In this document: piece by piece, positions 16,134 to 23,481 of the stretch
Numbering within the stretch: position 1 is the first letter of the stretch
Layout of the letters: every line of letters starts with the position of its first letter
Assembly (NCBI GenBank): GCA_003556525.1
Contig: PWRH01000095.1
Span: 1-24,805, forward strand
Source of the DNA: Candidatus Nealsonbacteria bacterium
Lineage (GTDB): Bacteria; Patescibacteriota; Minisyncoccia; Minisyncoccales; RBG-13-42-11
DNA: 24,805 nucleotides
Reading direction: 5' to 3'
Position numbers and translations under genes: made by a program
The notes under the pieces: model-generated
What the model was told of the DNA's origin: nothing
The model's database searches: none
The model's input: only the letters and a program-made list of their open reading frames with translations

Positions 16134-17381
16134 CTAAAATAATGTTTTTTGATGGAATAATTTACCTTTCTTTTTAAAAGATGAAACTTTAATTTTACCA
16201 AAAACTCCGTCATAACCGGGCTCTTTTAAAACATCCCCTGCTCTTACTTTAATTATTGAATTTGCAATATCAAACAGGGTTGATTTTTCCAACTCTTCCA
16301 TAGAAGCATTAAGGAGAATATTGAATTCCGGACCGGCTTTTTTTATCAATTCTTCATATCTTTTTTCCACTTCCTTGGTTTTTGTATTGCAATTAAGAGC
16401 GTCCGCTATTATTTCTTCTAAGGGAACCAAACTTTTAAAGGGAATACTGTTTGCCGGCTTAAAACCCTCGGGCTTATCTGCCAATTCTTCCACTCTGTTT
16501 AAAACTCCGACAGTCAAAGGTTTTGCACAAACCGGACAGGTTCCGCTATACTCTTTGGTTTGTTTGGGAGAAGAAATAATTTGGCAAGATCTGTGACCGT
16601 CAAAGTGGTACTTTCCTTCTTCCGGAAAAAACTCAATTGTGTATAAAAATTGCTTTGGATCTTTGTTTTTTATTGCTTGGACTATGTCTTTATAGCTGAT
16701 TTTCGTATTAAAAACATTTGCCTCTCTGCCAATCTTGGCAGGACTATGGGCGTCTGAATTGCTTATCAGGCAAATTTTCCGGCAATCCGGCATTTGCCAG
16801 AGCATGGCCGGGTCGGCGGACAGCCCTGTTTCTCCGGCAAAAATATATTTTGAATATTCTTCAAAGCATTCTTTCAAAGAATCAAAGCCCGATTTTGAAC
16901 CGAATAAAGAAAACCAAGGAGTCATTATATGGGCCGGCACAACCAGGCAGTCTTCTGAAATATTAAAGACAATTTTAACCAGCTCTTTTGCGTCAAGCCC
17001 GAGAATCGGACGGCCATCGGATTTTAAATTACCAATCCGACCAAGCTGGGTGTTAATTTTTTCTACAATAGTAAAACAGGGTGCAAAAATCAAAAGATGA
17101 ATTTTTCTGACTTTGTTTTTAGCGGAATAAATACAGCTTATTTCCGCGGTTAAAAGAAAACGGGTTTCCGATTTTTTATTTTTCAACCTAAACAATCCCT
17201 GTTCAGCCGGCTCCAAATCTTTTTTTAAAGACTTAAACCATTCAGGATGAGAAAAATCCCCGGTTCCCAAAACTTTAATTCCTTTAATATTCGCCCACTT
17301 ATCAAGATTTTCCAAATCCATGTTTTTGGAAGTTGCCCGGGAATATTTACTATGAATATGAAAATCAGCAACAAACTTCAT
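16134..17381 (-). CDS. Endonuclease Q family PHP-domain protein
   Basis: ADFHIHSKYSRATS, GTGDFSHPEW, DGRPILGLD, PAHIMTPW, SNSDAHSP..IGREAN, EEGKYHFDGH..C...CPVC, PGYDGVFG. Confidence 0.88.
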   Translation of the reverse strand: MKFVADFHIHSKYSRATSKNMDLENLDKWANIKGIKVLGTGDFSHPEWFKSLKKDLEPAEQGLFRLKNKKSETRFLLTAEISCIYSAKNKVRKIHLLIFAPCFTIVEKINTQLGRIGNLKSDGRPILGLDAKELVKIVFNISEDCLVVPAHIMTPWFSLFGSKSGFDSLKECFEEYSKYIFAGETGLSADPAMLWQMPDCRKICLISNSDAHSPAKIGREANVFNTKISYKDIVQAIKNKDPKQFLYTIEFFPEEGKYHFDGHRSCQIISSPKQTKEYSGTCPVCAKPLTVGVLNRVEELADKPEGFKPANSIPFKSLVPLEEIIADALNCNTKTKEVEKRYEELIKKAGPEFNILLNASMEELEKSTLFDIANSIIKVRAGDVLKEPGYDGVFGKIKVSSFKKKGKLFHQKTLF

Positions 17382-17644
17382 TCAACTTTATAAACTTTAT
17401 AACCCTCTCTTGCCTTTTCTTTTATTTTCATTCCGACAGAATCTCCCTTTTTCGCCTTTTTTATTTTTTTATGGTCAACCTCCATTGAGCCAACCTTTTG
17501 GCTAAAATCGGTTTCACCACCAACAATCCTGATTTTATCCCCTGCTTCAAGTTTGCCCGAAAGATCAATCACAGCCACTTTAATATTATTGAAATAATGC
17601 GATATTTTTCCTATCAATTTTTCTTTGGATATTTTTTTAGGCAT
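17378..17644 (-). CDS. Small EF-Tu domain II-like / U32 peptidase C-terminal-like beta-barrel protein
   Basis: IGKISHYFNNIKVAVI, L..GDKIRIVG, QKVGSMEVDH..I..AKKGDSVG.K, R.G.KVYK. ATGA overlap with the EndoQ-like gene. Confidence 0.8.
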   Translation of the reverse strand: MPKKISKEKLIGKISHYFNNIKVAVIDLSGKLEAGDKIRIVGGETDFSQKVGSMEVDHKKIKKAKKGDSVGMKIKEKAREGYKVYKVE

Positions 17645-17961: not shown

Positions 17962-18672
17962 TCACAAAGGCTGCTTTTTTGCTATAATATAAATATTGGT
18001 CCTTGGGTCTTTCCCGTCCTGCCAAAGTTTTTCCAAACTAAAACCGCTTTTTTTTGCCAAGCCAATAAGGCTTTTTTTGGTAAAGCAATGAAAATACCTT
18101 TGAGCAATAACCTCTTTTTGCGAATTTTTCCAAGAAACAAAAACATCGAAAAAATCCAACTTTGATTTGCCGATAAGTTTTAAAATAAAATATTTTAAAA
18201 TAAGCTTTCTGCCCTCTTTTCTCCTCCAAAAGTCCCAAACTCTTAAAACTAAAAGCCCTTCAGGCTTTAAAACCCTTTCTATTTCCTTTAAATATCTTAT
18301 TCTTAGTTCTTTTGAAGGAATATGGTGTATTACGGAAATACTGAAAACCTTATCGAAAAAATTATCCGGAAAAGGCAAGTTTAAAGCGTCAGTTACTTGA
18401 AAATTTGCTTGAGGATATCTTTTTTTGGCTATTTCGATCAATTCTTTGGAAATATCAATACCAAAATAATCAATTTTTTTGTCTTTTAAGACCTCAAAAA
18501 AGCGGCCACTGGCACAACCCGAATCCAAAACTTTTTCTCCCTCTAAAACATAATCAGCCAAGCCCCTGATATTGTCCGGAATAAAAGATCTGGTTCTTGT
18601 ATAGTCTTGTGCCAAAATATCGTAATCTTTTTCGGTTTGATCCATTATTTTTTTTGCATAATTTAAATTCAT
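17962..18672 (-). CDS. Class I SAM-dependent methyltransferase, Trm9/ALKBH8-like
   Basis: VLDSGCASGRF (motif I), GIDIS, DALNLPF, SISVIHHIP..ELR, LRVW, DVFVSW, RYFHCF. Start reassigned from TTG 18714 to ATG 18672 (MNLNYAKK, 236 aa). Confidence 0.88.
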   Translation of the reverse strand: MNLNYAKKIMDQTEKDYDILAQDYTRTRSFIPDNIRGLADYVLEGEKVLDSGCASGRFFEVLKDKKIDYFGIDISKELIEIAKKRYPQANFQVTDALNLPFPDNFFDKVFSISVIHHIPSKELRIRYLKEIERVLKPEGLLVLRVWDFWRRKEGRKLILKYFILKLIGKSKLDFFDVFVSWKNSQKEVIAQRYFHCFTKKSLIGLAKKSGFSLEKLWQDGKDPRTNIYIIAKKQPL

Positions 18673-20242
18673 GAATTTTTTAGAAGAAACAATTAAAGAA
18701 TTAATCAAAAGCAATGCTCAAGATTTTGAAAAATTGGCCCAAATTAAAAGAAAGGTTGCCAAAAAACATAAAATTTCCTGTCCGAGCAATGCCAATCTAT
18801 TAAAAGCTTATCACGGCCTTTTAAATAAAAAAAGAGTTAAAAAGTCGCAAAAAATTGAACATTTACTTCAAACAAAACCAATTCGGTCCATTGCCGGAAT
18901 AGTCAATGTGTCTGTTTTAACAAAACCCTACCCTTGTCCGGGCAAGTGCCTTTATTGCCCTCAAGAAAAAAATATTCCCAAAAGCTATTTATCCGGGGAG
19001 CCTGCTGTTGAAAGAGCTAAAAAATTAAACTACAACCCCTATCTGCAAGTAAGTAAAAGAATTGAAATGCTGGAATACGGAGGCCATCCCACAGATAAGG
19101 TTGAAATAAGAATTGTTGGAGCAACCTGGTCTTATTATCCCTTGAAATACCGGGAAAATTTTATTAAGCAGTGTTTTAGGGCATGTAATAGCAAAACAAA
19201 AAAAACCGATTTAACTCTTAGTCAGGAACAGAAAAAAAATGAAAAGGCCAAACACAGGGTTGTCGGTCTTTCCATTGAAACAAGGCCTGATTTTATCAAT
19301 CAAAAAGAGATTGAAAGACTGAGAATGTTTGGAGTAACAATGGTTGAGCTCGGGGTCCAGTCAATAAATAACGATGTTTTAAAAATAAATCTAAGAGGGC
19401 ACGAAATTCAAGAAACAATCTCAGCAACAAAAATGCTAAAAGATGCCGGCTTTAAGGTTTTATACCAAATAATGCCCAATTTACCCGGGTCAAATCCAAA
19501 CAAAGACAAAAAAATGTTTATCGAGCTTTTTTCAAACCCGGACTTTCAGCCGGATCTCTTAAAAATATACCCTTGTGCTCTTTTAAAAAACGCTCCGCTT
19601 TATAATCTTTGGAAAGATAAAAAATATAAACCTTACACCGAAAAAGAGTTGATAAATCTTGTTAGAGAAATCAAAAAAACAATTCCTTGCTATGTCAGAA
19701 TACAAAGAATAAGTAGAGATATTCCCTCAAAAACCATTGTTTCAGGCCCTGCTAAAATTTCCAACCTACGGCAAATTCTTAGTGAGGATGCAAAAAAAAA
19801 TAAAAAAGTTTTTTGCATTAACGATAGGCCGTGCCGCTGCATCAGATGTCGCGAGGTCAAAGAAAAATATATTAAAAAAGAAAAAGTTTTACTTTGGAGA
19901 GAAGATTATCGGGCATCCGAAGGGAAAGAAATTTTTTTAAGCTTTGAAAACAAACAAAGAACAAAACTTTACAGTTTGCTCCGTCTCCGCTTAACTTCCG
20001 AAAATAAAGCTATTATCAGGGAAATCCATACATATGGAAAGCTTGTTCCCATAAATAAAAAACAAGAAGCTCCCCAGCATAAAGGTTTGGGAAAAAAACT
20101 TGTTTTGGAAGCGGAAAAAATAACAAAAAAAGAGTTCAATCTCAAAGAAATAAGCGTAATTTCTTCGGTTGGAACAAGAGATTATTTCAGAAAGCTGGGC
20201 TATAAATTAAAAAACACCTATATGGTCAAGTCTTTGAAATAA
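18671..20242 (+). CDS. elp3: Elp3 radical-SAM/KAT tRNA U34 modification enzyme
   Basis: RSIAGIVNVSVLTKP, CPGKCLYCP (CX3CX2C), ETRPD, VELGVQS, MPNLPG, KIYPC, RIQRISRDIP, CRCIRCRE, IREIHTYG, QHKGLGKKL..EAE, GTRDYFRKLGY. Confidence 0.95.
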   Translation: MNFLEETIKELIKSNAQDFEKLAQIKRKVAKKHKISCPSNANLLKAYHGLLNKKRVKKSQKIEHLLQTKPIRSIAGIVNVSVLTKPYPCPGKCLYCPQEKNIPKSYLSGEPAVERAKKLNYNPYLQVSKRIEMLEYGGHPTDKVEIRIVGATWSYYPLKYRENFIKQCFRACNSKTKKTDLTLSQEQKKNEKAKHRVVGLSIETRPDFINQKEIERLRMFGVTMVELGVQSINNDVLKINLRGHEIQETISATKMLKDAGFKVLYQIMPNLPGSNPNKDKKMFIELFSNPDFQPDLLKIYPCALLKNAPLYNLWKDKKYKPYTEKELINLVREIKKTIPCYVRIQRISRDIPSKTIVSGPAKISNLRQILSEDAKKNKKVFCINDRPCRCIRCREVKEKYIKKEKVLLWREDYRASEGKEIFLSFENKQRTKLYSLLRLRLTSENKAIIREIHTYGKLVPINKKQEAPQHKGLGKKLVLEAEKITKKEFNLKEISVISSVGTRDYFRKLGYKLKNTYMVKSLK

Positions 20243-22035: not shown

Positions 22036-23481
22036 TTATTCTCCTTTAATAACAGCCAAAGGGGCAAGCTTTGCAACCTTTAAGGACAATCCGGCATTAT
22101 CTACCACGCTAACAACTTCTTCTATGTCTTTATATGCAAAAGGAGCTTCTTCGGCAATCCCACGCTGATTTTGACATTTAACAATAACACCTTTTGATTT
22201 TAGTTCATTTATTACGTTTTGTCCAGAAATAGCTCTTAATGCCGCTTTACGTGACATTGTCCTACCTGCCCCATGAGCGGTTGAATAAAAAGAATTTTTA
22301 CCTTTTTCCGTTCCTGCCATAATATAAGAAAAAGTCCCCATTGTGCCGGGAAGAAGAACCGGTTGGCCGACATTTTTATAGCTCAAAGGAATCTCGGGAT
22401 GACCCGGAGGAAAGGCCCTGGTTGCACCTTTTCTATGAACAATAAGCTCTGTTTCTTTTCCTTCAATATAATAATTTTCTTTTTTAATAATATTATGAGC
22501 AACATCGTATAGGACAGGTAGTGAATATTTTTTTTCCAAAATATTTTGCCATGCCTTTCTAATAAAATAAGTTATTGCCTGCCTGTTCGCCCATGCGTAA
22601 TTCGCAGCTGCAGCCATGGCTTGAAAATATTTTTGGCCATGAGAAGAATTAAAGGGAACACAAGCAAATTCTCTGTCCGAAATATTGATCTTATACTTAT
22701 TTTTCATTAAAGGAATAAATTCTTCCAAATAATCACTGCAAACCTTATGACCCAACCCTCTGCTTCCGCAATGTATCATAATAACGATTTGACCCTTAAA
22801 TAAACCGAAAGTTTCCGCCTTTTTTTCATCAAAAATATCAACTACTTTTTGGATTTCGCAAAAATGGTTTCCGCTTCCAAGGGTACCAAGCTGGTCTCTG
22901 CCTCTGTTTTTTGCTTTTAGTGAAACCGTCTCCGAGCAGGCCCAGCCCATTCTTCCAAAAGACTCACAATGATCAATATCTGCTTTTTCTCCATAACCCT
23001 GATCAATCAGTCTTTCCGCTCCTTGGTTTAAAATTTTATCAACCTCTTTAATGCTAATCTTGATTTTTCTTCCCCTACCCAGTCCTGAGGGAACAATTTT
23101 CTCAATTTCAAAAATCAATTTTTCCAAAAAAGGTTTAATTTCATGCTCTTGCCATTCGGACTTAAGCAGTCTTACTCCGCAATTAATATCAAACCCGCAA
23201 GCACCCGGAGATATAATGCCATCGGAGGACCTTATCGGCCCTACAAAACCTATTGGCACGGAATAACCTTCATGGCAATCAGGCATAGCTATTCCATAGT
23301 TAACAATTCCGGGCAAAGCGGTTCCGTTTATCAGCTGAGCAATCGATTTATCTTTTAAAATATCATCTATCATTTTTTCAGAAGCGTAAACTCTGGCAGG
23401 AACTCTCATTTCAGCACGAAAAGACCGGTCTATTTGCCATAAATAATCATTTATTTTAATAAAGTTTTTTTTGCCTATCAT
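22036..23481 (-). CDS. rtcB: RtcB family RNA-splicing/repair ligase (archaeal-type long form)
   Basis: MPDCHEGY, GFDINCGVR, GTLGSGNHF, IHCGSRG, YDVAHN, HRKGAT, PGTMG, HGAGR, EEAPFAYK. Confidence 0.95.
   Translation of the reverse strand: MIGKKNFIKINDYLWQIDRSFRAEMRVPARVYASEKMIDDILKDKSIAQLINGTALPGIVNYGIAMPDCHEGYSVPIGFVGPIRSSDGIISPGACGFDINCGVRLLKSEWQEHEIKPFLEKLIFEIEKIVPSGLGRGRKIKISIKEVDKILNQGAERLIDQGYGEKADIDHCESFGRMGWACSETVSLKAKNRGRDQLGTLGSGNHFCEIQKVVDIFDEKKAETFGLFKGQIVIMIHCGSRGLGHKVCSDYLEEFIPLMKNKYKINISDREFACVPFNSSHGQKYFQAMAAAANYAWANRQAITYFIRKAWQNILEKKYSLPVLYDVAHNIIKKENYYIEGKETELIVHRKGATRAFPPGHPEIPLSYKNVGQPVLLPGTMGTFSYIMAGTEKGKNSFYSTAHGAGRTMSRKAALRAISGQNVINELKSKGVIVKCQNQRGIAEEAPFAYKDIEEVVSVVDNAGLSLKVAKLAPLAVIKGE

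Follow-up and report, generated by a model that had tools for sequence, protein, structure and literature searches.

The window analysed here is the whole stretch of 24,805 nucleotides at positions 1 to 24,805 of contig PWRH01000095.1 of Candidatus Nealsonbacteria bacterium (assembly GCA_003556525.1; Patescibacteriota), and it shows a pair of divergent genes. The first, elp3, lies on the forward strand at positions 18671..20242 and encodes a 523 aa protein predicted, from profile and domain matches, to be a stand-alone radical S-adenosylmethionine (SAM)/GNAT tRNA U34 carboxymethylase. The second lies on the reverse strand at positions 17962..18672 and encodes a Trm9-like class I SAM methyltransferase, 236 aa long from the ATG at 18672 and predicted to be a tRNA (carboxymethyluridine34-5-O)-methyltransferase. 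In textbooks and reviews, the C5 chemistry of the wobble uridine differs between domains: bacteria use MnmE/MnmG, leading to 5-(carboxy)methylaminomethyluridine ((c)mnm5U), and archaea and eukaryotes use Elp3 or Elongator with Trm9-Trm112, leading to 5-methoxycarbonylmethyluridine (mcm5U). We consider it likely that the methyltransferase of the window is a bacterial variant of Trm9, independent of Trm112, which works with the stand-alone Elp3 in place of MnmE/MnmG. A preliminary description, made from the sequence alone, had pointed to a full Elp3 adjoining a class I methyltransferase as a two-gene module in a bacterium. The pair is real, but its genes are divergent and do not form an operon, and "in a bacterium" understated a pair that is widespread in Patescibacteria and Chloroflexota.

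Elp3 of the window matches NCBIfam TIGR01211 with 539.2 bits (cut-off 350) over residues 8-522 of 523, and its Pfam domains show the order ELP3_N, Radical_SAM (89-277), Radical_SAM_C and GNAT (Acetyltransf_10, 468-512). Its best match in the Protein Data Bank (PDB) is the archaeal MinElp3 6ia8 (E 5.9e-125, residues 18-522), followed by the Dehalococcoides Elp3 and eukaryotic Elp3. Three motifs were read from the translation, all on the forward strand: the radical-SAM cysteine motif CPGKCLYC (Cx4Cx2C; residues 89-96, positions 18935..18958), within the Radical_SAM match; the KAT/GNAT acetyl-CoA motif QHKGLGKKL (residues 469-477, positions 20075..20101), beside the Acetyltransf_10 match; and a cysteine cluster in the linker, CINDRPCRCIRC (residues 382-393, positions 19814-19849). 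This cluster is a candidate Zn site by analogy with the description in PMC6367351, and not by residue-by-residue alignment. With a full-length match over the cut-off, the domain order, the Fe-S cysteines, the acetyl-CoA motif and the cysteine cluster, the protein is, as far as sequence can tell, a member of the Elp3 family. Its N-terminal extension is basic, with 18 Lys or Arg among the first 75 residues, and is comparable to the tRNA-binding N-terminus of archaeal Elp3 (PMC6367351). Like DmcElp3 (PDB 5L7J) and MinElp3 (6IA8), it stands alone, without Elp1, 2, 4, 5 and 6, and the domain order and the cysteine cluster are common to the three proteins; the basic extension is shared with MinElp3 (420.7 bits), whereas DmcElp3 (363.9 bits) is shorter.

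The curated libraries give no specific name to the methyltransferase: Pfam shows only the generic Methyltransf_11/25/31 (Methyltransf_11, E 3.4e-24) and Ubie_methyltran families, and the NCBIfam matches are all far below their cut-offs. Its homologues are named "class I SAM-dependent methyltransferase" by NCBI, and several are named "tRNA (uracil-5-)-methyltransferase TRM9" and some UbiE by the automatic annotation of the Joint Genome Institute (JGI); a protein-cluster listing and a protein atlas of the family added further taxa and no function. At E<=1e-30, an exhaustive homologue search retrieved 320 representative clusters, almost all of them of about 230 aa and with full-length alignments, and 129 of these clusters were used to build a family profile, A1. 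Against 177,635 PDB sequences, A1 shows Yarrowia Trm9 (YlTrm9, 5cm2_Z) as first match, with 105.9 bits and E 1.5e-29, and the alignment spans the FSxTR, IAVIHH, VW, VPW and RYYH blocks. The AlphaFold (AF2) model of the methyltransferase has a mean predicted local distance difference test (pLDDT) of 97.6. When this model was compared with Swiss-Prot using Foldseek, the first match was Trm9 of S. pombe (E 1.7e-21, template modelling (TM) score 0.80 both ways), and the following ranks contained two microsporidian homologues, ScTrm9 of Saccharomyces, Arabidopsis TRM9 and five ALKBH8; Trm9/ALKBH8 proteins occupy ranks 1, 3, 4 and 7-11, at 20-27% identity; MenG/UbiE enzymes start at rank 12 (3e-16, TM about 0.66). 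TRM9- and ALKBH8-type entries are also among the top matches in the fold clusters of the AlphaFold database (AFDB). The first ranks in A1 and in Swiss-Prot place the likeness to Trm9 beyond chance.

Through a korarchaeal-like homologue adjoining Elp3 (L056), haloarchaeal proteins were found whose length, about 213 aa, is that expected for the experimentally validated Trm9 of Haloferax volcanii (HvoTrm9), and a haloarchaeal/korarchaeal profile, A2, also shows YlTrm9 as first PDB match (109.8 bits; next 74.9). Profile A2 aligns with the profile of the Candidate Phyla Radiation (CPR) family over 205 columns in hhalign (probability 100, E 4.8e-53). PDB entry 6f5z was taken up as a candidate for HvoTrm9 and rejected: it is Hvo_0019 and HvoTrm9 is HVO_1032, and the low rank of 6f5z carries no meaning. 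Judged by profile and structure ranks, the methyltransferase of the window is nearer to characterised Trm9 than to other characterised methyltransferases. It shares with yeast Trm9 (5CM2) and the methyltransferase domain of animal ALKBH8 the class I fold, the N-terminal FSxTR helix and the C-terminal VPW, RYYH and N blocks, and differs from them in being bacterial, stand-alone and of about 230 aa, without the ScTrm9 insertion or the RRM and AlkB domains. It also differs from yeast Trm9 in a Phe in place of Tyr243, in a GCASG motif I and in that its activity is a predicted one.

In ScTrm9, R29, D72, H116, W145, W168, R241, Y243 and N271 are required for activity, as shown by mutagenesis (Letoquart et al., PMC4678810). 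These residues were mapped onto the window methyltransferase through the A1/YlTrm9 alignment and the Sc/Yl Table 2 of PMC4678810 (adding 35 to the chain index reproduces the Yl number at all tested sites), numbered as in the public protein P0001, and their conservation was counted in 54 Elp3-linked homologues. Seven of the eight are conserved in the window methyltransferase, and their equivalents are 83-100% conserved among the 54 homologues. All motifs are on the reverse strand. DYTRTR (18589..18606), the FSxTR block of Trm9, shows as last Arg R19, equivalent to ScTrm9 R29 and YlTrm9 R40 (Arg in 54/54). D64, at the end of strand 2, is equivalent to ScTrm9 D72 and YlTrm9 D83 and is invariant in the family. 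SISVIHH (18322..18342) contains H107 and H108, equivalent to ScTrm9 H115 and the essential H116 (His in 50/54 and 48/54, respectively). RVWDFW (18226..18243) contains W137, equivalent to the essential W145 (Trp in 54/54), and DVFVSW (18130..18147) contains W172, equivalent to the essential W168 (Trp in 45/54, otherwise Phe or Tyr). RYFHCF (18082..18099) contains R183, equivalent to R241 (Arg in 53/54), Y184, equivalent to Y242, and F185, at the position of Y243, which is not conserved. Finally, RTNIYIIAKK (17974..18003) contains N217 (Asn in 49/54), which is probably equivalent to ScTrm9 N271 and YlTrm9 N222, the proposed uracil reader; this equivalence is transitive, from ...EKDNWWVVAK of YlTrm9 to the haloarchaeal profile and from the haloarchaeal to the CPR profile. 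About 96 of 120 sequences of the close clade share the unusual motif I, GCASG, which is therefore the norm there and no sign of decay. The preliminary description had listed DYTRTR, SISVIHH, DVFVSW and RYFHCF and likened them to Trm9/ALKBH8 blocks: all four are present and the blocks do align to YlTrm9, but the Y243 equivalent is Phe here and varies across the family. The profile and structure comparison that it had proposed places Trm9/ALKBH8 ahead of UbiE/MenG-type enzymes in A1, in Swiss-Prot and in the AFDB clusters alike.

The distribution of the methyltransferase follows that of Elp3. Close relatives are represented by three long contigs, and in each of these the two genes are again divergent neighbours. 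Scanning a single genome from each species yielded 80 loci, 84 with the earlier ones: Elp3 is in the flank of 54 of the 84, of which 50 are head to head and 42 directly so, with gaps of about 0-60 nt, and at eight more of the 84 the upstream sequence is insufficient to judge adjacency. The head-to-head arrangement is still seen at methyltransferase identities as low as 25%, and it was found in many CPR lineages, Chloroflexota, one metagenome-assembled genome (MAG) of Fermentibacteria and archaea of DPANN and korarchaeal type; in the archaeal loci L056, L058 and L077, elp3 is clustered with a trm9-like gene. Where the methyltransferase is not beside Elp3, the five genomes tested all encode Elp3 elsewhere. 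Two samples were examined, with thresholds fixed by score and coverage and independent of Elp3 status. The Patescibacteria sample contains 201 evenly sampled genomes, with the methyltransferase called at E<=1e-31: 86 encode Elp3 and 70 encode the methyltransferase, and 68 of these 70 are Elp3-positive. The two genes are at most 5 kb apart in 55 of the 68, and invariably divergent. The Chloroflexota sample is independent and contains 121 genomes, with a full-length methyltransferase defined as at least 110 bits: 23 encode Elp3, and a full-length methyltransferase is found in exactly those 23, adjacent in 20; the remaining 98 show only partial N-terminal matches of at most 95 bits and none of full length. 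Among the Chloroflexota with the pair are several single-contig genomes of 1.4-2 Mb, presumably Dehalococcoidia. The pattern recurs in the two phyla and in several clades of each.

Some members of these samples show other arrangements. Among the Elp3-positive Patescibacteria without the methyltransferase, eight belong to family f27 (G017, G045, G070, G094, G137, G157, G174 and G191) and three to f21 (G011, G132 and G187); such families may stop at 5-carboxymethyluridine (cm5U) or 5-carbamoylmethyluridine (ncm5U), or may use a different enzyme. A Trm9-like domain that is part of a longer open frame (about 500-570 aa) and not beside Elp3 was found at G199:C1:344785-345477, at G127:C3:57469-58125 and at L070 (a 570-aa open reading frame), and these frames are possibly fusion proteins. 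In a complete Peregrinibacteria genome (G205:C1:968770-970338, L069), the match to Elp3 falls into three successive pieces (103, 111 and 242 bits) that differ in open-frame length, and the gene carries a frameshift or is split.

The genome of the window, of 644 kb in 105 contigs and with a marker completeness of 100%, shows no match to MnmG (TIGR00136), and its best match to MnmE (TIGR00450) scores 41.5 bits (cut-off 252.6), in the GTPase domain only. MnmA is present (367 bits). No PF01171-type protein (TilS/TtcA/Ncs6/TtuA PP-loop) was matched in the 644 kb, where a gene could be missed across the 105 contigs. Among its U34 tRNAs are Glu-UUC, Lys-UUU and Gly-UCC. Of the 38 tRNAs detected, tRNA-Ile(GAU) and two CAU tRNAs are the only ones for Ile/CAU, which raises the question of how AUA is decoded. 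In the Patescibacteria sample, MnmG is encoded by none of the 86 Elp3-positive genomes and by 11 of the 115 Elp3-negative ones; in Chloroflexota, by none of 23 and by 61 of 98, respectively; and in both samples together, by 0/109 and 72/213. Five larger genomes that carry the pair (2.2-6.9 Mb) also show no MnmG, so the mutual exclusivity of Elp3 and MnmG holds where genome reduction cannot explain it. Since the pair is found only in bacteria without MnmG, it probably replaces the standard bacterial MnmE/MnmG pathway. A module replacing MnmE/MnmG was what the preliminary description had supposed, and the genome inventory that it called for (no MnmG, no MnmE above the cut-off, no Trm112, MnmA present) and the tight, mostly adjacent co-occurrence with elp3 in two phyla both support it. 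MnmE/MnmG, with MnmC or MnmL/MnmM, and the pair would have the same target, C5 of U34, and the same set of tRNAs, and both are accompanied by MnmA thiolation, but the enzymes and the chemistry are unrelated; MnmE/MnmG uses GTP, FAD, methylene-tetrahydrofolate and glycine to form 5-carboxymethylaminomethyluridine (cmnm5U).

In the route proposed here, Elp3 would use acetyl-CoA and SAM to place a carboxymethyl group on C5 of tRNA U34, giving cm5U34, and its divergent neighbour, as the putative bacterial orthologue of Trm9 and the ALKBH8 methyltransferase domain, would form the SAM-dependent methyl ester on the carboxyl, giving mcm5U34. Since the genome has kept MnmA, 2-thiolation is predicted to lead to 5-methoxycarbonylmethyl-2-thiouridine (mcm5s2U34) on tRNA-Glu(UUC), tRNA-Lys(UUU) and, if present, tRNA-Gln(UUG). 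This would be a hybrid route, with the C5 chemistry of archaea and eukaryotes and the thiolation of bacteria, and the module would substitute for MnmE/MnmG, which is missing from the genome of the window, MnmG being missing from all Elp3-positive genomes sampled. The methyltransferase would apparently function without the Trm112 activator.

Several observations weigh against this reading. In a PDB search with the single sequence, the uncharacterised PH0226 (1ve3) is first and YlTrm9 second; in Foldseek against the PDB, 3sm3 of M. mazei, of uncharacterised function, is narrowly above 5cm2; and profile A1 has a modest lead over generic methyltransferases (105.9 against 91.4 bits, then 88). A maximum-likelihood tree of 66 methyltransferases, with no eukaryotic rows, places the bacterial Elp3-linked proteins on one side and the archaeal and "generic" proteins on the other, with many open forks and long branches, and does not separate the family cleanly from generic methyltransferases; L066, L084 and L087 are members of the family despite their "generic" label in this tree. 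The Y243 position is Phe in the window and Tyr in only 22 of the 54 homologues; the Y243 mutant of ScTrm9 keeps 10% activity (PMC4678810). The methyltransferase is missing from 18 of the 86 Elp3-positive Patescibacteria and is not obligatory for Elp3 function, and relatedness among the genomes of each phylum sample makes the counts overstate independence. Lastly, all characterised Trm9 need Trm112 for solubility and activity (PMC4678810, PMC6144793), and a six-frame search with the 40-position model of Trm112 (PF03966) gave no match in the genome of the window.

This last point bears on which form of Trm9 the window could encode. Yeast and animal Trm9-type enzymes have a Trm112 partner, whereas none is detectable in the genome of the window or in most carrier genomes. 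PF03966 exceeds its cut-off in seven of the 201 Patescibacteria, in all cases inside open reading frames of 200-760 aa, and in four of the 68 methyltransferase-positive genomes. The seven genomes are G095, G093, G085, G142, G188, G115 and G156, and none shows it as a small stand-alone protein. The comparison of synteny among the loci showed no other small gene that accompanies the pair outside close relatives. We infer that the methyltransferase of the window is a Trm112-independent variant of Trm9 and not the canonical Trm9 holoenzyme. Polar replacement of the YlTrm9 residues in contact with Trm112 (V59, F78, V102, A110, P112 and F116) was considered as a marker of independence and dropped as non-discriminating: the CPR family has K at V59 and D or E at F78, and the Trm112-dependent haloarchaeal proteins have T and R at these positions.

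Three other explanations were weighed against a Trm112-independent bacterial Trm9. The one that survives best, although unlikely, is that the methyltransferase does act on the U34 side chain made by Elp3, with a product that is not mcm5U and is instead another methylated or further-processed cm5U derivative (xcm5U) of these bacteria. This would agree with the variability in the family of the Y243 position, which is near the cm5U carboxyl in the yeast model, with the unusual motif I of this clade, GCA(N/S)G, and with the unidentified cm5U-related species already seen in H. volcanii (PMC6144793). However, the equivalents of R29, H116, R241 and N271, for which a role in binding the carboxylate and the uracil ring has been proposed, are all conserved, and for this reason the same substrate geometry and O-methylation are favoured. 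Less probable again is that the methyltransferase is tied to Elp3 and has a different target, such as Elp3 itself, a metabolite related to a cofactor or a nucleotide elsewhere in these tRNAs. Co-distribution and adjacency indicate a functional link and not a chemistry, and the two genes are divergent and not co-transcribed, but both sequence and structure match Trm9/ALKBH8 best, and do so from end to end, through the Trm9-specific C-terminal blocks as well, and the substrate-binding residues defined by mutagenesis are conserved. A generic small-molecule methyltransferase of UbiE/MenG type, located beside elp3 by chance, is very improbable: the generic or UbiE-type Pfam and NCBIfam matches below cut-offs and the JGI records named UbiE would suit it, but Elp3 accompanies the methyltransferase in 68/70 Patescibacteria and 23/23 Chloroflexota, and the methyltransferase occurs in 0/98 Elp3-negative Chloroflexota, the head-to-head position is kept down to 25% identity and into archaea, MenG/UbiE rank structurally below Trm9 proteins, and CPR organisms generally lack quinone synthesis.

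The junction of the two genes shows no intergenic DNA. The public gene call places the start of the methyltransferase at 18645, nine codons downstream of 18672, and gives the 227-aa P0001; the nine extra N-terminal residues agree with the family consensus M....A..IL.KT, and the profile match extends as far as 18672, which supports the longer N-terminus. With this start, the ATG of elp3 (18671-18673) and that of the methyltransferase (18672-18670) overlap by 2 nt within a perfect palindrome of 14 bp, AAATTCATGAATTT (18665..18678, strandless), and transcription is divergent. Because the starts overlap, the promoter of each gene must sit within the other gene. No Shine-Dalgarno sequence is visible at either start, and the two mRNAs may be leaderless. 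Head-to-head gaps near zero are common among relatives (23-60 nt by tblastn, counted from the shorter gene model). Evidence of expression was sought, and the sequence is present only in DNA runs of salt-lake and soda-lake metagenomes. A wider reading, on which we are evenly divided, is that a Trm112-independent bacterial Trm9, start to start with Elp3, would be the standard C5 wobble-uridine pathway of about one third of Patescibacteria and one fifth of Chloroflexota, including cultured Dehalococcoidia-sized genomes, that it would fully replace MnmE/MnmG and yield mcm5s2U34 with MnmA, and that the zero-length divergent junction would be a shared control element with bidirectional, possibly leaderless transcription.

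Other genes are found on both sides of the pair. On the methyltransferase side, on the reverse strand, a gene encoding an 88-aa EF-Tu-domain-2-like protein (17378-17644) overlaps the start of a gene encoding a 415-aa protein of PHP/MJ0043_C type (16134-17381). These two neighbours were considered as a third partner of the module and rejected, as they are syntenic in only the 10-11 closest loci. On the other side, 1.8 kb from elp3, a gene on the reverse strand encodes an RtcB RNA ligase (22036-23481, 528 bits), and in the relatives L004 and L007, Archease precedes RtcB, again near the elp3 pair. The surroundings of RtcB, Archease and elp3 may be a local group of tRNA-maturation genes.

In a review of 2020, bacterial Elp3 was confined to Dehalococcoides and there was no evidence of xcm5U in bacteria (PMC7663514), whereas here Elp3 is found in 86/201 Patescibacteria and 23/121 Chloroflexota; a paper of 2026 places Elp3 in "numerous bacteria". 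Orthologues of Trm9 were described in eukaryotes, with an archaeal range limited to Halobacteriales and Sulfolobales, and clustering of elp3 and trm9 was already noted in Sulfolobus solfataricus (PMC5372719, PMC6144793). In H. volcanii, HvoTrm9 (HVO_1032, about 213 aa) makes mcm5U in vivo with a stand-alone Elp3, and requires Trm112 for solubility and in-vivo activity (PMC6144793). The HvoTrm9 system and the pair of the window both consist of a prokaryotic stand-alone Elp3 and a small Trm9, of families that align as given above, but the pair of the window differs from those of Haloferax and Sulfolobus in being bacterial and head to head, and in having MnmA instead of a thiolase of Ncs6/Tuc1 type. 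In full-text literature searches, no paper was found that describes a Trm9 in bacteria; Elp3 in Dehalococcoides and the JGI label TRM9 were already known.

To our knowledge, mcm5s2U34 has so far been credited to eukaryotes only, and mcm5U is known also in one archaeon. The data point to a complete route by Elp3 and Trm9, widespread in two large phyla of bacteria, exclusive with MnmG and without Trm112. If this is true, mcm5(s2)U would enter the modification repertoire of bacteria. The family would also offer a naturally soluble, partner-free Trm9 for work on structure and mechanism, whereas eukaryotic Trm9 is insoluble without Trm112, and these bacteria would be a natural experiment on swapping one essential decoding pathway for another.

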